Assembly (NCBI GenBank): GCA_947631295.1
Contig: CANRKU010000001.1
Location: forward strand, 6,690-70,689
Source: an uncultured Bacilli bacterium
GTDB taxonomy: Bacteria; Bacillota_I; Bacilli_A; RF39; UBA660
Direction: 5' to 3'
Length of the DNA stretch: 64,000 nucleotides
Part shown: in pieces, positions 16,306-38,459 of the stretch
How positions within the stretch are numbered: the first letter of the stretch is position 1
Layout: the number at the start of each line of letters is the position of its first letter
The notes under the pieces: model-generated
What the model was told of the DNA's origin: nothing
Database searches by the model: none
What the model saw: only the letters and a program-made list of their open reading frames with translations
Translations under genes and position numbers: made by a program

Positions 16306-17370
16306 ATGAGTAATAAATTAAATTATCGTTTAGTTAATACTTTATTATTAATGGCAATTATTTATATTATTGTTGCTACTAGTAATTATTGGGGTGGAAT
16401 TCTTCTAAAAGTATTTAATATTTTAGTTCCTTTTCTGTTAGCTTTTGTTTTTGCTTACATTTTAAATCCTTTTGTTAAAAAGTTAGAAGAAAAAGGAATT
16501 CGCAGAAGCTTGGCTATGATTTTTGTTATCTTAGTTGTCTTTGGTATATTTATTGGACTTTTGTGGATTACAGTTCCAGCTGTTTATGAACAGTTAGTAT
16601 CTTTTTCAAAAACAATTGCACAAGTAATTAATAATTTGTCTGGTAGATTGGATATTGATTTAGGATCTTATCAAATAGCAATTATGGATACATTAAATCA
16701 AATGATAAAAGATTTGGGTAGTTATATTTCTACAGGTACGATTGATATTTTAGGAAAAAGTGTTAATTTTTTAACTAATATGATTATTGTTTTTATCGTT
16801 GGAATTTATTTATTAATCGATATGGATAAGATACGTCATTTTATTAAAAAAACATTGTCATCTCATAAAAAAGAATTTCAATATGTGAAAGCAATTGATC
16901 GTGAGATGAGTGCTTATTTACATGGATTAGCTATTTTTATGATTATTCAATTAATAGAGTACTCCATTTTATTTAAAATTGTGGGACATCCTAGTTGGTT
17001 ATTATTAGGACTTTTGGCTTGTGTTACAACTGTTATTCCTTATTTTGGAGGAATTATTACGAATATTATTGCTGTTGTTACTGCTAGTGTAATTTCAACA
17101 AAACTTTTTATTGCGACATTATTCATTACTCTTGTTTTTCCAAATATAGATGGCTATGTCATTTCTCCTCATATTTATGGTAAAACTAATAATATTAATC
17201 CTATTTTAGTTATTTTTACTGCTGGTGTATGTAGTAGTTTGTTTGGAATTCTTGGAATTACAATGGGGCTTCCTCTTTATATTATTGTTCGTACTACATG
17301 GTATTTTTTTCATCAAGATATTAAAGAATATATTGTAGATATGAAGGAAGATAAAAATGCAACCAAGTAA
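16306..17370 (+). CDS. AI-2E family transporter (UPF0118/PerM-like) membrane protein
   Basis: 354 aa with 7-8 TM helices and a family-typical ...ILNPFV..LE..G.RRSLA.. segment. Confidence 0.8.
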   Translation: MSNKLNYRLVNTLLLMAIIYIIVATSNYWGGILLKVFNILVPFLLAFVFAYILNPFVKKLEEKGIRRSLAMIFVILVVFGIFIGLLWITVPAVYEQLVSFSKTIAQVINNLSGRLDIDLGSYQIAIMDTLNQMIKDLGSYISTGTIDILGKSVNFLTNMIIVFIVGIYLLIDMDKIRHFIKKTLSSHKKEFQYVKAIDREMSAYLHGLAIFMIIQLIEYSILFKIVGHPSWLLLGLLACVTTVIPYFGGIITNIIAVVTASVISTKLFIATLFITLVFPNIDGYVISPHIYGKTNNINPILVIFTAGVCSSLFGILGITMGLPLYIIVRTTWYFFHQDIKEYIVDMKEDKNATK

Positions 17371-17436
17371 AAATGATATATATCTGTATAGTCATTTATT
17401 TGATAGAAGAATTGGGATTATTTGGAGAAGAATTAG

Positions 17437-17589
17437 ATTCTCTACTTTGTTGATTTAGTGTACCCTTGGTTTGATCGTGGTGGCGATTGGAACAATGGTT
17501 CATATGTTGGTGTCTTTGCTTTTAATACTTACACTGGAGGGATGACTTCCCATCTTTCTTTCCGTATTGTACTTGCACCGATAAAATAA
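17437..17589 (+). pseudogene. orphan gene remnant encoding a C-type-lectin/FGE-sulfatase-like C-terminal segment (DGR variable-region-like); no start codon, preceded by stop codons
   Basis: Translation is ILYFVDLVYPWFDRGGDWNNGSYVGVFAFNTYTGGMTSHLSFRIVLAPIK*. The local GC is about 45% against about 28% for the surroundings. An upstream 26-codon ORF in another frame (17373..17453) suggests frame disruption. Confidence 0.4.
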
Positions 17590-17623
17590 TTATATTATAA
17601 TAATGCTACTAAGGGGTGATACG

Positions 17624-18295
17624 ATGTCTATTATTAAACAAAATCGAAGAGGGAGCATTATTGTAATTAGTGGTCCAAGTGGTTCTGGAAAAGGAACAAT
17701 TATTAATGAAATATTAAAGAAAAATAAAAACTGTTGGTTATCAGTTTCTACTACTAGTCGTCCAATTAGAGAAAATGATATTCCTGGTGTTACTTATAAT
17801 TTTGTTACTAAAGAAGAATTTGAAAAGAAAATCCAAGATGGTTATTTTTTAGAATATAATAATTACGTTGGAAATTATTATGGTACCCCTAAAGAATTTA
17901 TATTTAGTAAGATACAACAAGGAATCGATGTTATTTTAGAAATCGAAATTAATGGTGCACAAAATATAAAGAAATTGATACCTGAAGCTATTTTTATCTT
18001 TATCATGCCACCATCTATTGAAGAACTACAACAGCGATTAAGAAATCGTGGTACTGATAGCGAAGAAAAAATATTAGAACGATTTAAAGTTGCTTATCAA
18101 GAGATTAATGAGGTAACAAAATATAATTATGTAGTAGTAAATGATAAATTGGAAGAAGCAGTAGAAAAGGTACATTCTATTTTATTAGCTGAAAAATGTA
18201 GGGTGGATCGTATCGAAGAAGTATTTTTAAACAATAAAGAAGAAACTATTCATGAAAAATTAGTTGATAATAAACAATTTGATAATAGTAAATAA
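17624..18295 (+). CDS. gmk: guanylate kinase
   Basis: Has a P-loop (ISGPSGSGKGT) and the Gmk core. The start was set at the ATG following an AAGGGGTGA RBS. Confidence 0.9.
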   Translation: MSIIKQNRRGSIIVISGPSGSGKGTIINEILKKNKNCWLSVSTTSRPIRENDIPGVTYNFVTKEEFEKKIQDGYFLEYNNYVGNYYGTPKEFIFSKIQQGIDVILEIEINGAQNIKKLIPEAIFIFIMPPSIEELQQRLRNRGTDSEEKILERFKVAYQEINEVTKYNYVVVNDKLEEAVEKVHSILLAEKCRVDRIEEVFLNNKEETIHEKLVDNKQFDNSK

Positions 18296-19225: not shown

Positions 19226-19333
19226 CTTCTTCTAATCTTCTAACATGATTATACTCAATTTTTTTTTCTTTTACAACCAATCAATAGACAAAATTAAGAA
19301 AATAAGATATGATTATAATAAGGTGTGAGTGTT

Positions 19334-22300
19334 ATGAAAATAACTAATAATGTATTAATAAAAGTAACTAATGATGATTTGATAAATGGTACTTTTACTA
19401 TTCCTGATGGTATCGTTTCTATAGGTGATTCTGCTTTTGACTTTTGTAGCCATTTAGAATCTGTTATCATTCCTGATAGCGTTATCAGCATTGGAGATTT
19501 TGCTTTTAATTATTGTGAGTCGTTACATTCTGTTATTATTCCTGATAGTGTCGTCCATATGGGTAAAACTGTTTTTCACCAATGCAAATCTTTACAGTCT
19601 GTAATATTATCAACTAATCTTACTAGTATCGAAGATTTTACTTTTCGTAGCTGCCAGTCTTTAATTTCTATTACTATACCCAAAATGGTTACTAAAATTG
19701 GCAATTATGCTTTTTCTAATTGTCTTTCTTTAAAATCTATTAATGGATTAGAAGGGGTTGTTGAGTTAGGCGATAGAACATTCCAAAATTGTAAATCTTT
19801 ATCTTCAATAGAATTATCTGAAAATCTTATAGATATTGGTCAAGAAGCCTTTTCTAATTGCGAATCTTTAACTAGCATCATGATACCTAAAAAAGTAAAA
19901 AAAATAAAAAAAGCTACCTTTGATGGGTGCCATTCATTAATATCTATATCATTATCTGACTCTATTGAAAGCATTGAAACAAAAGCTTTTAATAATTGCC
20001 CAATTGAAAATATAAATACACCATGGGGAGATTATCATATAACGCATCCTACTACTGAAAATGTTGCTAGTAGTTATCTTTATCTTTATGTAAATTCTAT
20101 CTTACAAGAAAAATTTAGTTCTTTAGCAGATTTTATTAATACTAATAATTCTATTTATGATTGCTTTATGAATAATAATTATCTTTTAGATCAAAATGCT
20201 ATTCAAAAATTTAAAAATTTATTTTATAAAATGAGAAGAACTTATGATATCAATGGAAATTTGTTCCATTCAATGGATTTGGAAATAACTGATAAATTTA
20301 ATTTAAATACTTGGAATCGTATTAAAAATGTTTTTGATTGGCGTGATACCTCCGAATTAGCACAATCTTTTAGTGAAATGATGAAAGTTTTTGGATTATT
20401 TGAAAATGATAGCGAAAAAGAAAAAAGAATTTCAGATTTTATTCATTTTTTTCGTGAAGATGACTTTTTTCTTACAAGTAAGCAATTTTCTGATTTAATT
20501 TCATGTTATTCTAATATGTCTCAAGTAATAGTTGATTCTTTTGAAAAGAAAGAGAAAAAATCTATAGTATGTAAACCAAATGTAGATATTCCTACTCAAT
20601 TTCAACCTTATTTAAAAAAGGAATTATCAGATCAAGTTATTAAATATATTAAAAGATTAGATGGTAGTTATGGAAAACGTATTAATGATTTTGTTAAAGA
20701 AAATTATGAAACTCATTACTTTGAAATCTATCAATTAAAGGAAGAATATTGTAACAATAATCATAGTATAAATCATTTATTATTTTATCATGATTTACTA
20801 GGCCATATTAATTATAGTAGTCTTCATCGTATATTTGATGGATGTGAATTAAAATTTAATCCTGATTTTTATCATTTTTTTAGAGATAATTTAGAATTTA
20901 TTTTACAGGATGAAAAATTACAGTCTCAAGTAAAAAATATCCAGAAGAATTTTGAAAAAATGAAAAATCATTATTTCAATCAATCAGGAGTAAAAGAAAT
21001 CACTTTAAAACAAGCACTTGATTATTTAGAAAATATTACCTTTGATTATCATGATGGAAATTATGAATTAGCACTGGATGTCAAAAGAGCTGGGGTAAAG
21101 AATGAAGAAGCCTTTCTTTATTATCAAAAAGTATTTGAAGAAAATGATGTTAGAAAATTAAGTTCTTTAATAAAAAGAAGCCATATTTATGAAATTGATG
21201 GCTATACGATTCAAGCAGAATTATTAAGAAAAGACGATAGTTTTGGTATGTTAGTAGGAGAAGTTAACTATACCGATTGTTGTCAAGCATTTGGTGATTT
21301 AGGTCATAATTGTATGGCCCATGCAGTAAGTAGTGATGATGGAGGAATCTTTGTTACCAGATTATTAAAAGATGGAGAATGGATTTTACTAACAGAGTCA
21401 TGGGATTGGCAGAATAATAATATTTATTGTCATGATAATATCGAAGGAACACCTTATTTCAAAAAAGATGAAAGATTAAAAAAAGCAGTAGCAGAGGTTT
21501 ATCGTTTAGATGGAGAAGCTATTATTGAAAAAAGTAAAGAAGAGGTATTAAAATATATAAAAACAAGAAGAAAAGTAATTGAGAAATCATCATTACCTAA
21601 TAAAGAAAAAGAATTGGAATTATTAAGAGAGTTAGAACAAAGAGAAGTAATTCGCTTAGTAACAGTAGGATCTGGAAATGATGATTTAGGACTTTCTCGT
21701 TATTTTCAAAGATCCATTCAAGTAAATCAAGAACAGATTATCGCCTCACAAAGATTTACCTTAGAAAACTTTCAACCAGTTAATTATAATTCAAATCAAC
21801 CATATTTTGATGAGACTCATGGTTCTTATACTGATAGCGGTATAAAACAGTATATGATAGCAGGAAGTATAGAAGAATTATGTTTGGGGAAATTAGAACC
21901 ATTAGTACCTATTTATCGAGATGAAAGAAGAGTCATCTTAGAAGAGAAAGAAAATATTAGAAATTATACGGTAAATAAAATCAAGAATATGGAAAAAGAA
22001 ATTTATCCAAAAGAGATGTATCAATATCAAACATCTCATCAAGATGATTTTAGTGATTCTAATATTTATTTAGGAGAAGATTGGTACTTAATTTATGAGG
22101 AAAAAGAAGATAATGGTATTTATATATCTGATTTAGTGAAAACAACTCCAACATTAGGAGATGAAATAAAGGATCAAAATCAAGAAATTATGAAAGTAAT
22201 CTATGATTTAGTAAGAAAATATGATTATATCGAAGCAGATTTAAAAGAGGATACCTCCTATTTATTATATTTAATCAATAAAAAGTTAGGATATTTTGAA

Positions 22301-22504
22301 CAAATAGGAGAAGATATTAGTTATCCATTCCAAAATAGAAATCAACAAAAAGAAATAACAGAACAAGAACAAGAAGATATATTAAAACAAATGAAAGAAA
22401 TTAAGAAGAAAAAAAATCCAGAATTAATCATGCATCATATTATCTTTCAAAAAGGAAAACTTTTTCAATTAGAAGAAGAAGAAGAAGCTATCAAACGTCG
22501 TTAA
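19334..22504 (+). CDS. BspA-type leucine-rich-repeat protein, paralog 1 (variable N-terminal LRR region + conserved about 560-aa C-terminal module); no signal peptide
   Basis: LRR_5-type units (IPDSV.SIGD.AF..C.SL) occupy the first about 230 aa. The C-terminal 1.68 kb is nearly identical to that of paralogs 2 and 3. The ATG at 19334 follows an AAGGTG RBS. Confidence 0.85.
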   Translation: MKITNNVLIKVTNDDLINGTFTIPDGIVSIGDSAFDFCSHLESVIIPDSVISIGDFAFNYCESLHSVIIPDSVVHMGKTVFHQCKSLQSVILSTNLTSIEDFTFRSCQSLISITIPKMVTKIGNYAFSNCLSLKSINGLEGVVELGDRTFQNCKSLSSIELSENLIDIGQEAFSNCESLTSIMIPKKVKKIKKATFDGCHSLISISLSDSIESIETKAFNNCPIENINTPWGDYHITHPTTENVASSYLYLYVNSILQEKFSSLADFINTNNSIYDCFMNNNYLLDQNAIQKFKNLFYKMRRTYDINGNLFHSMDLEITDKFNLNTWNRIKNVFDWRDTSELAQSFSEMMKVFGLFENDSEKEKRISDFIHFFREDDFFLTSKQFSDLISCYSNMSQVIVDSFEKKEKKSIVCKPNVDIPTQFQPYLKKELSDQVIKYIKRLDGSYGKRINDFVKENYETHYFEIYQLKEEYCNNNHSINHLLFYHDLLGHINYSSLHRIFDGCELKFNPDFYHFFRDNLEFILQDEKLQSQVKNIQKNFEKMKNHYFNQSGVKEITLKQALDYLENITFDYHDGNYELALDVKRAGVKNEEAFLYYQKVFEENDVRKLSSLIKRSHIYEIDGYTIQAELLRKDDSFGMLVGEVNYTDCCQAFGDLGHNCMAHAVSSDDGGIFVTRLLKDGEWILLTESWDWQNNNIYCHDNIEGTPYFKKDERLKKAVAEVYRLDGEAIIEKSKEEVLKYIKTRRKVIEKSSLPNKEKELELLRELEQREVIRLVTVGSGNDDLGLSRYFQRSIQVNQEQIIASQRFTLENFQPVNYNSNQPYFDETHGSYTDSGIKQYMIAGSIEELCLGKLEPLVPIYRDERRVILEEKENIRNYTVNKIKNMEKEIYPKEMYQYQTSHQDDFSDSNIYLGEDWYLIYEEKEDNGIYISDLVKTTPTLGDEIKDQNQEIMKVIYDLVRKYDYIEADLKEDTSYLLYLINKKLGYFEQIGEDISYPFQNRNQQKEITEQEQEDILKQMKEIKKKKNPELIMHHIIFQKGKLFQLEEEEEAIKRR

Positions 22505-22640
22505 TTTTAGTTATCAAAAAAAGAAATAAAATAAACAAGAATAGGAGGTGAAAGGTATGCAAGTAATGAATGGTGTATTAACAGATGTTGAAGATAAAGA
22601 TATTATGAATGGTACTTTTATATTTCCTGAAGGAGTTACC
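20827..22640 (+). repeat. direct repeat copy 1 of about 1.8 kb (3' end of LRR gene 1 + intergenic + 5' head of gene 2)
   Basis: Nucleotide-level identity with 23936..25750 was judged by eye at essentially 100% over more than 1.6 kb. Confidence 0.8.
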
Positions 22641-25613
22641 AGTATAGGAGATTATGCTTTTGATCATTGCAAATCCTTAATTTCCATTATTATACCTGAA
22701 GGAGTTACTAGTATAGGAGATTATGCTTTTGCTAGTTGTAGATCCTTAACCTCAATTAATCTACCTGAAGGAGTTACCAGTATAGGAGATTATGCTTTTT
22801 TCCACTGTAGCCACTTAACTTCCATTACTATACCTGAAGGAGTTACCAGTATAGGAGCTTGTGCTTTTTATGATTGTATATCCTTAACTTCCATTACTAT
22901 ACCCGAAGGAGTTACTAGTATAGGATATTCTGCTTTTTGGAATTGTAACCCCTTAACTTCCATTACACTACCTGAAAGTATCACCAATATAGAAAAATCT
23001 GCTTTTGATGATTGTTCAATAAAAGAATTTCATACACCTTGGGGTAGTTGTGTAATGGGTGATTGTACTACCAAAGACATAATTCAAAAATATTTATATT
23101 TATATGCAAATTCTATTTTGAAAGAAAAATATTTATCTTTTGATGATTTCTTATCTAGTAATGATTTTATTTATGAATTTTTTGATGGTGCTATTATTTA
23201 TCATACCAACGCTATCATAAAATTCAAAAACTTATTTTACAAAATGAGAAAAGACTTTGATATTCCAAACGGACTATTTAATAGAATGAGCGTAGAAATG
23301 ACTGAAAAATTTGATTTGAAAACATGGAATCGTATTAAAAATATCTTTGATTGGCGAGGTTCTCCTGAAATGACAGAAGCATTTAATGAAATAATAGCAG
23401 TCTTTGGATTATTTGAAGAGGATAACGAAAAAGAAAAAAGAATTTTAGATTTTATCGATCTTTTTCAGAGAAAATCTTATATCATAACGAATGATGATTA
23501 TTTTAGAATGGATGATAATATTCATCCTTATTTTGAAAAAATAGAAACAACTTGTATGTTATTAAAAGAAAAAACAGATATTCTTACTAAATTTCAACTT
23601 TATTTAAAAAGAAGATTATCAGAATCGGAAATTAAGAAAATTAAAAAGTTAAATGGTACTTATGGGAAACAAATTAATGAGTTTTTAAAAGAAAAAACAG
23701 ATATTTCTACTCAATTTCAACCTTATTTAAAAAGAAGGTTATCAGAATCAGAAATTAGGAAAATTAAAAAATTAACTGGTACTTATGGAAAACAAATTAA
23801 TGAGTTTTTAAAAGATTATTATCAAGTTAGTATGGTAAAAGATTATCAATTAAAAGAAGAGTATTTGAATCAAAAAGACATTAAAAAGTATTTATTTTTT
23901 AAAACTGATTTACATGGTTATCTTACATATCATAGTCTTCATCGTATATTTGATGGATGTGAATTAACATTTCAACCTGATTTTTATCATTTCTTCATGG
24001 ATAATTTAGAATTTATTTTACAGGATGAAAAATTACAGTCTCAAGTAAAAAATATCCAGAAGAATTTTGAAAAAATGAAAAATCATTATTTCAATCAATC
24101 AGGAGTAAAAGAAATCACTTTAAAACAAGCACTTGATTATTTAGAAAATATTACCTTTGATTATCATGATGGAAATTATGAATTAGCACTGGATGTCAAA
24201 AGAGCTGGGGTAAAGAATGAAGAAGCCTTTCTTTATTATCAAAAAGTATTTGAAGAAAATGATGTTAGAAAATTAAGTTCTTTAATAAAAAGAAGCCATA
24301 TTTATGAAATTGATGGCTATACGATTCAAGCAGAATTATTAAGAAAAGACGATAGTTTTGGTATGTTAGTAGGAGAAGTTAACTATACCGATTGTTGTCA
24401 AGCATTTGGTGATTTAGGTCATAATTGTATGGCCCATGCAGTAAGTAGTGATGATGGAGGAATCTTTGTTACCAGATTATTAAAAGATGGAGAATGGATT
24501 TTACTAACAGAGTCATGGGATTGGCAGAATAATAATATTTATTGTCATGATAATATCGAAGGAACACCTTATTTCAAAAAAGATGAAAGATTAAAAAAAG
24601 CAGTAGCAGAGGTTTATCGTTTAGATGGAGAAGCTATTATTGAAAAAAGTAAAGAAGAGGTATTAAAATATATAAAAACAAGAAGAAAAGTAATTGAGAA
24701 ATCATCATTACCTAATAAAGAAAAAGAATTGGAATTATTAAGAGAGTTAGAACAAAGAGAAGTAATTCGCTTAGTAACAGTAGGATCTGGAAATGATGAT
24801 TTAGGACTTTCTCGTTATTTTCAAAGATCCATTCAAGTAAATCAAGAACAGATTATCGCCTCACAAAGATTTACCTTAGAAAACTTTCAACCAGTTAATT
24901 ATAATTCAAATCAACCATATTTTGATGAGACTCATGGTTCTTATACTGATAGCGGTATAAAACAGTATATGATAGCAGGAAGTATAGAAGAATTATGTTT
25001 GGGGAAATTAGAACCATTAGTACCTATTTATCGAGATGAAAGAAGAGTCATCTTAGAAGAGAAAGAAAATATTAGAAATTATACGGTAAATAAAATCAAG
25101 AATATGGAAAAAGAAATTTATCCAAAAGAGATGTATCAATATCAAACATCTCATCAAGATGATTTTAGTGATTCTAATATTTATTTAGGAGAAGATTGGT
25201 ACTTAATTTATGAGGAAAAAGAAGATAATGGTATTTATATATCTGATTTAGTGAAAACAACTCCAACATTAGGAGATGAAATAAAGGATCAAAATCAAGA
25301 AATTATGAAAGTAATCTATGATTTAGTAAGAAAATATGATTATATCGAAGCAGATTTAAAAGAGGATACCTCCTATTTATTATATTTAATCAATAAAAAG
25401 TTAGGATATTTTGAACAAATAGGAGAAGATATTAGTTATCCATTCCAAAATAGAAATCAACAAAAAGAAATAACAGAACAAGAACAAGAAGATATATTAA
25501 AACAAATGAAAGAAATTAAGAAGAAAAAAAATCCAGAATTAATCATGCATCATATTACCTTTCAAAAAGGAAAACTTTTTCAATTAGAAGAAGAAGCTAT
25601 CAAACATCGTTAA
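22557..25613 (+). CDS. BspA-type leucine-rich-repeat protein, paralog 2 (contains an internal 120-nt tandem duplication)
   Basis: AGGAGGTGA RBS. Carries LRR units of type IPEGVTSIGDYAF..C.SLTSI and the same C-terminal module as paralog 1. Confidence 0.85.
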   Translation: MQVMNGVLTDVEDKDIMNGTFIFPEGVTSIGDYAFDHCKSLISIIIPEGVTSIGDYAFASCRSLTSINLPEGVTSIGDYAFFHCSHLTSITIPEGVTSIGACAFYDCISLTSITIPEGVTSIGYSAFWNCNPLTSITLPESITNIEKSAFDDCSIKEFHTPWGSCVMGDCTTKDIIQKYLYLYANSILKEKYLSFDDFLSSNDFIYEFFDGAIIYHTNAIIKFKNLFYKMRKDFDIPNGLFNRMSVEMTEKFDLKTWNRIKNIFDWRGSPEMTEAFNEIIAVFGLFEEDNEKEKRILDFIDLFQRKSYIITNDDYFRMDDNIHPYFEKIETTCMLLKEKTDILTKFQLYLKRRLSESEIKKIKKLNGTYGKQINEFLKEKTDISTQFQPYLKRRLSESEIRKIKKLTGTYGKQINEFLKDYYQVSMVKDYQLKEEYLNQKDIKKYLFFKTDLHGYLTYHSLHRIFDGCELTFQPDFYHFFMDNLEFILQDEKLQSQVKNIQKNFEKMKNHYFNQSGVKEITLKQALDYLENITFDYHDGNYELALDVKRAGVKNEEAFLYYQKVFEENDVRKLSSLIKRSHIYEIDGYTIQAELLRKDDSFGMLVGEVNYTDCCQAFGDLGHNCMAHAVSSDDGGIFVTRLLKDGEWILLTESWDWQNNNIYCHDNIEGTPYFKKDERLKKAVAEVYRLDGEAIIEKSKEEVLKYIKTRRKVIEKSSLPNKEKELELLRELEQREVIRLVTVGSGNDDLGLSRYFQRSIQVNQEQIIASQRFTLENFQPVNYNSNQPYFDETHGSYTDSGIKQYMIAGSIEELCLGKLEPLVPIYRDERRVILEEKENIRNYTVNKIKNMEKEIYPKEMYQYQTSHQDDFSDSNIYLGEDWYLIYEEKEDNGIYISDLVKTTPTLGDEIKDQNQEIMKVIYDLVRKYDYIEADLKEDTSYLLYLINKKLGYFEQIGEDISYPFQNRNQQKEITEQEQEDILKQMKEIKKKKNPELIMHHITFQKGKLFQLEEEAIKHR

Positions 25614-25750
25614 TTTTTAGTTATTAAAAAAATAAAATAAACAAGAATAGGAGGTGAAAGGTATGCAAGTAATGAATGGTGTATTAACAGATGTTAAAGA
25701 TGATGATATTATGAATGGTACTTTTATATTTCCTGAAGGAGTTACCAGTA
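23936..25750 (+). repeat. direct repeat copy 2 of about 1.8 kb
   Basis: Identical to copy 1, and to copy 3 from about 27421 onward. Confidence 0.8.
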
Positions 25751-28700
25751 TAGGAAGAGGGGCTTTTTATGGTTGTTGGTCTTTAATTTCCATTACTATA
25801 CCAGAAGGAGTTATCAGTATAGGAGATTATGCTTTTTATAATTGTAAATCCTTAACTTTAATTACTATACCTAAAGGAGTTACCAGTATAGGAAAAAATG
25901 CTTTTGAGCATTGTAGCTCCTTAACTTCCATTACTATACCCAAAGGAGTTACTAGTATAGGATATTCTGCTTTTGCTAGTTGTAGATCCTTAACCTCAAT
26001 TACACTACCTAAAAGTATCACCAGTATAGGAAAATTTGCTTTTGATAGTTGTAGATCTTTAACCACAATTAATCTACCCGAAGGAGTTACCAGTATAGGA
26101 ACTGCTGCTTTTAATGGTTGTAGATCTTTAACCTCAATTAATCTACCCGAAGGAGTTACTAGTATAGGAGATTATGCTTTTTGGAATTGTAGATCCTTAA
26201 CTTCCATTACTATACCCGAAGGAGTTACTAGTATAGGATATTCTGCTTTTAATGGTTGTAGATCTTTAACCTCAATTAATCTACCCGAAGGAGTTACCAG
26301 TATAGGAGATGCTGCTTTTGATGATTGCTCAATACATGAACTACATACACCATGGGGTAGTTGTGAAATGGATGATTGTACTACCGAAGATATAATTCAA
26401 AAATATTTATATTTATATGCAAATTCTATTTTGAAAGAAAAATATTCATCTCTTGATGATTTCTTATCTAGTAATGATTTTATTTATGAATTTTTTGATG
26501 GTGCTATTATTTATCATACCAACGCTATCATAAAATTCAAAAACTTATTTTATAAAATGAGAAAAGACTTTGATATTTCTACAGAACTATGTGATAGAAT
26601 GAACCTAGAAATGACTGAAAAATTTAAGTTGAAGACATGGAATCGTATTAAAAATGTTTTTGATTGGCGTGATTCTATTGAAATGACAGAAGCCTTTAAT
26701 GAAATAATAGCAGTCTTTGGATTATTTGAAAATGATTTAGAAAAAGAAACTAGAATTTTAGATTTTATCGATCTTTTTGAAGAAAAATCTTATATCATAA
26801 CGAATGATGATTCTTTTGGAATGGATGTTAATAGTACGTCTTATTGCGAAAAAATAGAAACAACTTGTATGTTATTAAAGGATGGAATAGATATTCCTAC
26901 TGAATTTCAACCTTATTTAAAAGTAAGACTATCAGAATCAGAAATTAAGAAAATTAAAAAATTAACTGGTACTTATGGAAAACAAATCAATGAGTTTTTA
27001 AAATATTATTATCAGGTTAATATTTTCAAAGATTATCAATTAAAAAAAGAATATTTAGATCAAGAAGATATTAAAAAACGTATATTTTTTAAAACTGATT
27101 GGTATGGTCATCTTACATATCATAGTCTTCATCGTATATTTGATGGATGTGAATTAAAATTTAATCCTGATTTTTATCATTTCTTGATGGATAATTTAGA
27201 ATTTATTTTACATGATGAAAAACTACAGTCTGAAGTAAAAAATATCCAGAAGAATTTTGAAAAAATGAAAAAACATTATCTCTTTCAATCAGGAACTACA
27301 GAAATTACTTTAAAACAAGCTCTTGATTATTTAGAAAATATTACTTTTGATTATCATGATAGAAATTATGAATTAGCATTAGATGTTAAAAGAGCTGGGG
27401 TAAACGATGAAGAAGCTTTTCTTTATTATCAAAAAGTATTTGAAGAAAATGATGTTAGAAAATTAAGTTCTTTAATAAAAAGAAGCCATATTTATGAAAT
27501 TGATGGCTATACGATTCAAGCAGAATTATTAAGAAAAGACGATAGTTTTGGTATGTTAGTAGGAGAAGTTAACTATACCGATTGTTGTCAAGCATTTGGT
27601 GATTTAGGTCATAATTGTATGGCCCATGCAGTAAGTAGTGATGATGGAGGAATCTTTGTTACCAGATTATTAAAAGATGGAGAATGGATTTTACTAACAG
27701 AGTCATGGGATTGGCAGAATAATAATATTTATTGTCATGATAATATCGAAGGAACACCTTATTTCAAAAAAGATGAAAGATTAAAAAAAGCAGTAGCAGA
27801 GGTTTATCGTTTAGATGGAGAAGCTATTATTGAAAAAAGTAAAGAAGAGGTATTAAAATATATAAAAACAAGAAGAAAAGTAATTGAGAAATCATCATTA
27901 CCTAATAAAGAAAAAGAATTGGAATTATTAAGAGAGTTAGAACAAAGAGAAGTAATTCGCTTAGTAACAGTAGGATCTGGAAATGATGATTTAGGACTTT
28001 CTCGTTATTTTCAAAGATCCATTCAAGTAAATCAAGAACAGATTATCGCCTCACAAAGATTTACCTTAGAAAACTTTCAACCAGTTAATTATAATTCAAA
28101 TCAACCATATTTTGATGAGACTCATGGTTCTTATACTGATAGCGGTATAAAACAGTATATGATAGCAGGAAGTATAGAAGAATTATGTTTGGGGAAATTA
28201 GAACCATTAGTACCTATTTATCGAGATGAAAGAAGAGTCATCTTAGAAGAGAAAGAAAATATTAGAAATTATACGGTAAATAAAATCAAGAATATGGAAA
28301 AAGAAATTTATCCAAAAGAGATGTATCAATATCAAACATCTCATCAAGATGATTTTAGTGATTCTAATATTTATTTAGGAGAAGATTGGTACTTAATTTA
28401 TGAGGAAAAAGAAGATAATGGTATTTATATATCTGATTTAGTGAAAACAACTCCAACATTAGGAGATGAAATAAAGGATCAAAATCAAGAAATTATGAAA
28501 GTAATCTATGATTTAGTAAGAAAATATGATTATATCGAAGCAGATTTAAAAGAGGATACCTCCTATTTATTATATTTAATCAATAAAAAGTTAGGATATT
28601 TTGAACAAATAGGAGAAGATATTAGTTATCCATTCCAAAATAGAAATCAACAAAAAGAAATAACAGAACAAGAACAAGAAGATATATTAAAACAAATGAA

Positions 28701-28803
28701 AGAAATTAAGAAGAAAAAAAATCCAGAATTAATCATGCATCATATTACCTTTCAAAAAGGAAAACTTTTTCAATTAGAAGAAGAAGCTATCAAACATCGT
28801 TAA
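25663..28803 (+). CDS. BspA-type leucine-rich-repeat protein, paralog 3 (expanded array of about 9 near-identical 23-aa LRR units)
   Basis: The 5' 95 nt and the upstream intergenic region are near-identical to paralog 2. The C-terminal module is identical except for a diverged patch of about 300 nt (27180-27420). Confidence 0.85.
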   Translation: MQVMNGVLTDVKDDDIMNGTFIFPEGVTSIGRGAFYGCWSLISITIPEGVISIGDYAFYNCKSLTLITIPKGVTSIGKNAFEHCSSLTSITIPKGVTSIGYSAFASCRSLTSITLPKSITSIGKFAFDSCRSLTTINLPEGVTSIGTAAFNGCRSLTSINLPEGVTSIGDYAFWNCRSLTSITIPEGVTSIGYSAFNGCRSLTSINLPEGVTSIGDAAFDDCSIHELHTPWGSCEMDDCTTEDIIQKYLYLYANSILKEKYSSLDDFLSSNDFIYEFFDGAIIYHTNAIIKFKNLFYKMRKDFDISTELCDRMNLEMTEKFKLKTWNRIKNVFDWRDSIEMTEAFNEIIAVFGLFENDLEKETRILDFIDLFEEKSYIITNDDSFGMDVNSTSYCEKIETTCMLLKDGIDIPTEFQPYLKVRLSESEIKKIKKLTGTYGKQINEFLKYYYQVNIFKDYQLKKEYLDQEDIKKRIFFKTDWYGHLTYHSLHRIFDGCELKFNPDFYHFLMDNLEFILHDEKLQSEVKNIQKNFEKMKKHYLFQSGTTEITLKQALDYLENITFDYHDRNYELALDVKRAGVNDEEAFLYYQKVFEENDVRKLSSLIKRSHIYEIDGYTIQAELLRKDDSFGMLVGEVNYTDCCQAFGDLGHNCMAHAVSSDDGGIFVTRLLKDGEWILLTESWDWQNNNIYCHDNIEGTPYFKKDERLKKAVAEVYRLDGEAIIEKSKEEVLKYIKTRRKVIEKSSLPNKEKELELLRELEQREVIRLVTVGSGNDDLGLSRYFQRSIQVNQEQIIASQRFTLENFQPVNYNSNQPYFDETHGSYTDSGIKQYMIAGSIEELCLGKLEPLVPIYRDERRVILEEKENIRNYTVNKIKNMEKEIYPKEMYQYQTSHQDDFSDSNIYLGEDWYLIYEEKEDNGIYISDLVKTTPTLGDEIKDQNQEIMKVIYDLVRKYDYIEADLKEDTSYLLYLINKKLGYFEQIGEDISYPFQNRNQQKEITEQEQEDILKQMKEIKKKKNPELIMHHITFQKGKLFQLEEEAIKHR
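27118..28803 (+). repeat. direct repeat copy 3 (3' module only; diverged 27180-27420)
   Basis: Same sequence as copies 1 and 2 apart from a patch of clustered substitutions. No head segment follows because cvpA comes next. Confidence 0.8.
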
Positions 28804-38112: not shown

Positions 38113-38274
38113 CTAATGTATTGTATGCAGTATAAAAGAGAAAGTGTTGACCAAAAATTCGATAAAATTTTACTCCTGATAAAATGAAAAAGAAAAATTA
38201 TGTTATATAAAATATTTTTGTCAAATAAAGTAAAAAAAAGTATAAAAATATTATTTTTATGGTATACTATAATT

Positions 38275-38459
38275 GTCTAGAGGAATCGAGTTTGTCACAT
38301 ATAAAACCGACTAATTAGAACGATACGGGAGCATCCGATCAGCAATTTGTGTTGAATGCCTTTCCATTGGTAAAGGAATCCTAGAAAATTGCGTACGAGC
38401 ACCCACCTGTACAAGTGCAGGTTTTATCGTTAGACATATCGATCCTTTGGACTTTTTTT
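38275..38459 (+). ncRNA. ssrS: candidate 6S RNA (SsrS), about 185 nt
   Basis: An extended -10 promoter (TGgTATACT) lies about 7 nt upstream. The 5' end (GUCUAGAGGAAUCGAU) pairs with the 3' end (AUAUCGAUCCUUUGGAC) in a closing stem of about 15 bp, followed by U7. An internal small hairpin (ACCUG..CAGGU) is present. It lies upstream of a tcdA/yrvM-like gene, mirroring B. subtilis bsrA (6S-1). Confidence 0.5.

Follow-up and report, generated by a model that had tools for sequence, protein, structure and literature searches.

Immediately upstream of gmk in an uncultured member of the Bacilli, we observe a segment of roughly 150 nt that is very probably a non-functional, 5′-truncated remnant of a target gene of a diversity-generating retroelement (DGR), left as a genomic fossil at a deletion scar. 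The segment resembles the last ~50 codons of a large, unannotated protein family whose C-terminus is a DGR variable region (VR), and it is a VR-type copy rather than a template repeat (TR). Throughout, the window denotes the whole stretch of 64,000 nt that was analysed. It stems from a low-GC, uncultured Bacilli bacterium found in gut metagenomes, whose nearest species representatives are MAGs from the Hadza gut and the rabbit gut.

Position and composition of the relic

The features of the locus are as follows.

16306..17370, + strand: gene of an AI-2E family transporter, the left neighbour (PF01594, E = 7e-45)
17371..17436: AT-rich stretch of 66 nt from the AI-2E stop to the relic
17434..17436, + strand: in-frame TAG that closes the frame just 5′ of the recognisable relic
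17437..17589, + strand: the relic proper, consisting of the last 50 codons and a native-type stop of a gene of the DGR-target family, with VR-type sequence
17458..17589, + strand: mechanically listed ORF of 43 codons with GTG as its first codon, 40.9% GC
17573..17601, + strand: possible gmk promoter, TTGCAC, 17 nt, TATAAT, as read from the sequence
17590..17604: right-hand junction zone with only short imperfect A+T palindromes
17624..18295, + strand: gmk, the right neighbour (PF00625, E = 1e-49)

The relic lies in the 232–253 nt of non-coding DNA that separate the AI-2E stop from gmk, the range reflecting two possible starts of the latter. The called start is ATG 17603 (MLLRGDTMSIIK...), while an alternative, ATG 17624 (MSIIK), is the probable one, as it is preceded by AAGGGGTGA and the resulting N-terminus matches those of the relatives (MSIIKQ/MSIVKQ).

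The listed ORF at 17458–17589 translates to VYPWFDRGGDWNNGSYVGVFAFNTYTGGMTSHLSFRIVLAPIK followed by a stop, which is the sequence given in the original prediction. Also borne out are the in-frame stop just 5′ of the fragment and a short ORF in another frame (17357–17458) that overlaps the start of the relic. The further statement that the fragment has no start codon stands only in part: the first codon of the 43-aa ORF is GTG, but reading the sequence 5′ of GTG 17458 reveals no Shine-Dalgarno or other ribosome-binding site. Recognisable homology to the family begins at about 17437, slightly 5′ of this ORF, with ILYFVDLVYPWF. There are no frameshifts inside the relic, and the scaffold is intact at all 12 positions that are invariant or nearly so.

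The relic (17437–17589) has a GC content of 41%, compared to 27% for the window; for the listed ORF, the value is 40.9%, against flanks of 24–25% and a window mean of 27.1%. This places it within the top 0.47% of 132-nt windows. The fragment had been described as GC-rich at about 45%, and the elevation is real even if the figure was too high. The GC maximum of the window is the 6S/SsrS RNA gene at 38271–38457 on the + strand (RF00013, 58.1 bits, E = 6e-9).

Comparison of the locus with its relatives

To place the relic, we turn to L004 and L006, the closest two relatives in which gmk is still found downstream of the AI-2E gene; their transporters are 80% and 71% identical, respectively, to that of the window. 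In both, the order is AI-2E, zr1, zr2, gmk, followed by rnhC on the opposite strand, where zr1 encodes a zinc-ribbon protein of 413–415 aa and zr2 a zinc-ribbon/Yip1 membrane protein of 241–243 aa. The pair occupies 5195–7180 in L004 and 4223–6217 in L006. Both genes are absent from the window, and between L004 and L006 they are only 51–52% identical, from which it follows that they are old residents at this locus. The relatives additionally have a terminator hairpin after the AI-2E gene, which is absent in the window.

The window is homologous to the relatives up to the AI-2E stop and again from about 17596–17611 onwards, shortly before gmk. Taken with the missing zinc-ribbon genes, this break indicates that about 2.3 kb was replaced by about 230 nt, including the relic, in the lineage of the window. 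The relic thus marks a lineage-specific replacement or deletion. Among 38 related AI-2E loci (314 kb), we find no members of the family to which the relic belongs.

The original prediction had named, as a finding that would speak against it, an ordinary gene truncated by misassembly. The junction is 100% identical, and free of Ns, in an independent Logan assembly (ERR10663793), and exact look-ups of the AI-2E and gmk genes lead to a single distinct place that is identical to the window. Since the flanks are also syntenic with the relatives within 240 nt, misassembly is unlikely.

The 3′ end of the relic overlaps a candidate promoter. TTGCAC (17573–17578) lies inside the relic, while TATAAT (17596–17601) lies beyond it in a −10 region that aligns with the sequence upstream of gmk in L006. 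Judging from these hexamers, the relic may incidentally supply a −35-like element for gmk. A consensus scan for promoters and terminators gave nothing above shuffled sequences and missed this candidate because the first hexamer has only a 3/6 match. An Rfam scan of 17200–17800 returned only chance-level matches.

Farther along the window, at 19325–28803 on the + strand, we observe three tandem paralogues of 1059, 1021, and 1049 aa. Their N-termini are leucine-rich repeats of the BspA type (PF13306; the first has E = 6.5e-60), and the long C-terminal part of each is unannotated.

Homology to a large unannotated protein family

A phmmer search with the relic peptide against 1.84 billion representative proteins yields 64 matches with E ≤ 1e-3, of which the best has E = 7.3e-10, and all of the alignments fall at the C-terminal end of the matched proteins. 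The long matches (441–845 aa; P0006, P0010, P0025, P0026, P0040, and P0064) align at their extreme C-terminus. Conversely, tblastn searches of the window with family members give matches only at 17431/17437–17586; full-length members match nothing else, and a profile of the part that precedes the VR recognises in the window only the segment LYFVDLVYPWF. At the DNA level, the 3′ part of the relic aligns with intact genes of three loci (L045, L003, and L047), up to and including the ...AAATAA stop. A word-indexed protein search with the 43-aa peptide returned no candidates, and Pfam and NCBIfam scans of the same peptide gave no match. A resemblance this strong to the family lies well outside what chance would produce, and it does not extend beyond the final ~50 codons.

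The family itself is very large. Searches with P0025 and with the intact target gene of locus L042 each recover more than 7,900 proteins at E ≤ 1e-5, and the named matches are all "hypothetical protein." The family, represented by P0025, P0085, and P0184, is defined by an N-terminal signal anchor or pilin-like N_methyl segment, a beta-rich middle, and a conserved C-terminal domain of ~300 residues that ends in the VR. The motifs of this domain run HPAF...GKFE...HMMKNTEWGAVAYL...GIYDMSGG...ILGDATGEMGPF, or, in an alternative listing, HPAF...GKFE...MMKNTEWGAVAYL...GIYDMSGG...ILGDATGE. No Pfam or NCBIfam model covers the domain. Elsewhere in the proteins, a subset of the members begins with a prepilin N_methyl segment, and a subset contains Laminin_G_3 or Ig-like inserts. 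The family members are secreted or anchored in the membrane and occur in gut Bacilli of low GC content and in the phages of these bacteria. The hosts match the window in AT-richness, with GC contents of 26.5–27.4% at the loci L045 (a 1.44-Mb contig), L047 (a gut MAG), and L003.

Alleles of the family are mosaic. An identical VR-containing block, ...GNLLLRGGGWHDGTSTGVFAFNGNSGGTNTNISFRIVLAPTK, is found in P0082, P0085, P0097 (605 aa), and P0127 (670 aa), the architectures of which differ despite this shared C-terminal block. We also observe dozens of alleles with similar N-terminal regions, each forming its own 90% cluster.

The C-terminus of the family is a DGR variable region

Several loci contain family members together with components of a DGR. 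In L042, from IMG/VR, the target gene spans 20–1201 with its VR at 1046–1190 (the last 145 nt) and a TR at 2017–2164; 23 of the 26 differences between VR and TR lie at TR adenines, and downstream of the TR are genes for bAvd (PF22296) and a reverse transcriptase (RT; PF00078). In L048, the VR (459–601) and the TR (808–951) differ at 15 positions, all of which are TR adenines, while in L043, a TR-type ORF adjoins an RT fragment. The phmmer matches fall into corresponding types: those that end in ...VL[AT]P(xx) and a stop contain 0–5 Asn, as expected of the VR type, whereas most of those that read past LAP into unrelated sequence contain 7–14 Asn and are translated TRs. Together, these observations show that the C-terminal ~45 residues of the family are a DGR VR. 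As many family members (e.g., those of L045 and L047) have no RT within 10 kb, however, membership in the family does not by itself prove targeting by a DGR.

These cassettes display some individual features. In L042, an ORF of 137 aa at 1570–1983, between the target and the TR/bAvd/RT region, matches MutS domain I (PF01624, E = 5e-9); an accessory gene of this kind is unusual in a DGR. The VR of L048 has lost 1 nt at one of the 15 TR adenines at which the pair differs; the target gene is thereby frameshifted, which looks like a self-inflicted inactivation by mutagenic homing. In L002, the VR at 1–58 is followed by TAG and an inverted repeat (AGATGACT..AGTCATCT) and is 98% identical to an Asn-rich TR at 342–399; this VR is undiversified or freshly reset. 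Finally, two metagenome scaffolds from ENA (L050 and L051) have gaps, given as runs of N, just 5′ of the family VR that break the ORFs, which suggests that assemblers stumble on the hypervariable or repeated VR region. These gaps also account for the two short "MGPF..." matches that we examined as candidates for recurrent orphan VR tails in the family: both are gap-broken ORFs, and the idea was set aside.

The window copy is of the VR type

To classify the copy in the window, we compared it with 19 TR-type ORFs of the family, defining a TR-Asn position as one with Asn in at least half of these templates. The window copy is substituted at 8 of the 11 TR-Asn positions, as opposed to 1 of the 17 conserved non-Asn positions (Fisher p = 4e-4), in agreement with the earlier claim that varied residues occupy the positions of template Asn. 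The AAY codons of the templates now encode Tyr, Asp, Thr, His, and other residues, while the scaffold residues are kept, and the number of Asn in the copy is 3. A pyrimidine in the third position (NNY) is retained in 10 of the 11 codons at TR-Asn positions (p = 0.012), as would be expected if mutations had hit only the adenines of AAY. Judged in this way against the templates of other family members, the relic copy itself was plausibly diversified by adenine-directed mutagenesis.

The sequence that follows the VR points in the same direction. In the window, it is ATAAAATAA (ATA AAA TAA), and in intact genes, it is ACTAAATAA (ACT AAA TAA; L045) or ACAAAATAA (ACA AAA TAA; L003), whereas the flanks of TRs past the point of TR/VR divergence read AGACTAC in both L048 and L002. 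The gene-like post-VR sequence and the VR-like Asn content both speak against the survival of a decayed TR and against the capture of a TR-derived cDNA, and the comparison thus identifies the window copy as VR-type sequence that derives from the end of a gene. On this evidence, the central proposal of the original prediction, namely that the fragment is a relic of the variable C-terminus of a DGR target, agrees with what we find, as it is significantly similar to the last 40–50 residues of a family with a DGR VR.

Components missing from the window

On its 5′ side, the window copy lacks more than 500 codons. With full-length members as tblastn queries, the window lacks the N-terminal segment, the beta-rich middle, and the motifs of the conserved domain. 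The AT-rich stretch that precedes the relic (17371–17436) aligns with the DNA that precedes the VR in six genes of the family no better than shuffles do (p ~0.2–0.26) and has no similarity to the intergenic DNA of the relatives. We considered an extension of the relic to about 17403 through EELGLFGEELD, which is encoded in another frame and recalls the family motif GEMGPFGxExD, but the resemblance is not significant (blastx E = 6–26; profile E = 0.75 for EELGLFGE; DNA not above shuffles).

On the 3′ side, intact genes are directly followed by inverted repeats with 100% complementary arms of 17 nt (L042), 13 nt (L045), and 11 nt (L047). No such perfect repeat follows the relic, where we find only imperfect A+T palindromes of 9–13 nt. 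In the DGR of Bordetella phage BPP-1, the downstream inverted repeat is needed for efficient homing, whereas upstream sequence is dispensable (PMC3240598).

The core of a DGR was also sought. Within the 64-kb window, blastn and tblastn detect no second copy or TR, a scan for the YxDD motif is empty, and tblastn with two RTs and two Avds finds no homologue (all E > 0.2), consistent with the earlier remark that neither an RT nor a TR is visible there. Pattern searches for a cognate TR extended to collections that do not include the window's own genome: a "same base or A" pattern has no match in genome_contigs, a codon-masked pattern none in metagenome_contigs or viral_contigs, and a pattern of the TR flank (...CTTGCNCCNAGACTAC) none in the viral and metagenome contigs. 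The relic is truncated and most likely does nothing.

GC content and relation to CLec/FGE domains

In the original prediction, the high GC content had been taken as a sign of horizontal acquisition. We observe the same elevation in intact family genes, where the last 150 nt have 38.7–42.7% GC compared to 27–31% for the rest of the gene, even though these genes sit in loci of 26.5–27.4% GC. The GC spike is therefore an intrinsic property of the VR and not the sign of a foreign donor, and the argument for acquisition from GC falls away. The spike reflects the Gly, Arg, Ala, and Pro codons of the VR together with the constraint that its sequence follows the TR. More generally, where a VR produces a GC spike in an AT-rich genome, the spike is no reason to assume horizontal transfer.

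The fragment had further been likened to C-type lectin (CLec)/FGE-sulfatase domains, for which a search with PF03781 was proposed. This check returned nothing for the fragment, which has no match at E ≤ 10, and eight full-length relatives have none at E ≤ 0.1. The full-length relative P0184 has a sub-threshold match on the segment containing GIYDMSGG (15.6 bits, with the cut-off at 23.3; E = 0.013). An hhalign comparison of the family profile with the Mtd-like target of Faecalibacterium phage FP_Lagaffe, which itself matches PF03781 (E = 1.9e-7), gives a probability of 71% (E = 3.7e-5) over the last 40 residues, and weak tblastn matches of the peptide in phages are mostly DGR VRs, TRs, or RT loci. 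By these sequence comparisons, a link between the family and the CLec/FGE type appears weak but consistent. In structure prediction with AF2, the C-terminal domain has a pLDDT of 20–40 with 20 sequences and is well predicted with 70; fold searches with the 70-sequence model gave no resolved fold match for this domain.

Origin of the relic and alternative explanations

The most probable history of the locus begins with a DGR-diversified gene of the family that came to sit upstream of gmk, and whose VR would have been rewritten by adenine-directed mutagenic retrohoming before the truncation. A deletion or an illegitimate recombination would then have removed the body of the gene together with the zinc-ribbon genes, leaving ~150 nt as an inert tail that comprises the final 50 codons with their stop and a few more bases. 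The intactness of all 12 scaffold positions and the lack of frameshifts imply that the truncation is recent or that something has preserved the sequence. In addition, the 5′ limit of recognisable homology (~17437) is where TR/VR homology starts in L048 and L042, a match that is a coincidence if the deletion was random.

Both of these points bear on the rival explanations. It is unlikely, for instance, that the relic is a remote VR into which a DGR elsewhere in the genome still homes despite its non-coding state. The undecayed scaffold, the frequent location of family members far from any RT, and the finding that homing in BPP-1 needs no upstream VR sequence (PMC3240598) would all be in keeping with such a role, but the relic lacks the perfect inverted repeat that intact targets possess and that BPP-1 needs (PMC3240598), its sequence is 100% identical in an independent assembly, and there is no TR or RT within 64 kb. 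The suggestion of a displaced VR, if taken to mean one that still functions, fares poorly for similar reasons, with neither an ORF to carry it nor a downstream inverted repeat. Ectopic capture of a free, mutagenised TR-derived cDNA during repair of the break that removed the zinc-ribbon genes, or survival of a decayed TR, would explain why the homology starts at ~17437, as the TR/VR does in L048 (LAHFV...) and L042, why no gene body is detectable upstream, and why the segment sits at a deletion scar. We nevertheless regard this origin as highly unlikely, given that ATA AAA TAA after the VR is gene-like and differs from the AGACTAC of TRs, and that the 3 Asn of the relic are VR-like as compared to the 7–14 of TR ORFs.

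Two other readings have very little probability. A functional micro-protein of 43 aa translated from GTG 17458 would fit the uninterrupted GTG-start ORF and its intact conserved residues, but is hardly conceivable for a peptide that has no ribosome-binding site and would amount to just the final strands of a domain that exceeds 250 residues; a stand-alone family of such peptides was not found, and the short VR-type matches examined are scaffold-gap artefacts. Equally hard to credit is a chance resemblance or an assembly chimera. The fragment has no Pfam or NCBIfam match, and VRs do break assemblies elsewhere, as the gaps just 5′ of the VR in L050 and L051 illustrate; against this stand an E-value of 7e-10 among 1.84e9 proteins, the synteny of both flanks with the relatives within 240 nt, and a junction that is identical and without Ns in a second assembly. 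Finally, the orphan tail could conceivably be other than inert, either still addressed by a DGR elsewhere in the genome or serving as a silent cassette that lacks a promoter and recombines into full-length paralogues. The latter role is suggested by analogy to pilS cassettes, by the mosaic alleles, and by the identical VR blocks in different architectures. Were this highly improbable scenario correct, the coincidence with the TR/VR unit and the undecayed scaffold would be meaningful rather than accidental. A remnant of a truncated DGR-target gene remains the explanation that we favour.

Comparison with known systems and significance

Like the variable proteins of other DGRs, such as Mtd of BPP-1, TvpA of T. 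denticola, and the Mtd-like target of FP_Lagaffe, the relic has the C-terminal pattern RGG-x-W-x-x-G-x-x-x-G-x-F ... G ... F-R, and like VRs of the CLec/FGE type, it is substituted at the positions of template Asn. Unlike these three targets, it is not in a gene and is not accompanied by a TR, an RT, an Avd, or a downstream inverted repeat, and in contrast to targets of the CLec/FGE type, its family has no Pfam model for the conserved domain.

Parallels are also found among DGR remnants. Isolates of Treponema denticola have truncated targets of 58–136 aa, with or without an RT and a TR (PMC4891356), and Nostoc all3226 has remnant TR–VR homology without a nearby RT (PMC7517822). As in these cases, the relic is a leftover, VR-bearing piece of a target at a locus without the core DGR. 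It differs from the truncated targets of T. denticola in being shorter (50 codons), in having no start context, and in consisting essentially of the VR alone, and it differs from both the T. denticola and Nostoc remnants in its placement at a lineage-specific deletion scar between housekeeping genes, as well as in the target family it derives from, which is a separate and unannotated one in gut Bacilli of low GC content. Truncated DGR targets are thus already known, and the relic is a further instance, in an unannotated family of gut Bacilli.

As a pseudogene fragment, the relic matters little on its own. It dates the loss of 2.3 kb of genes next to gmk, and it marks the lineage as a past or present host of a DGR-diversified surface protein. 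Beyond this locus, it draws attention to a very large family that has no Pfam or NCBIfam annotation, although it is the target of verified DGR cassettes. A model of this family would improve the annotation of DGR targets in gut metagenomes.
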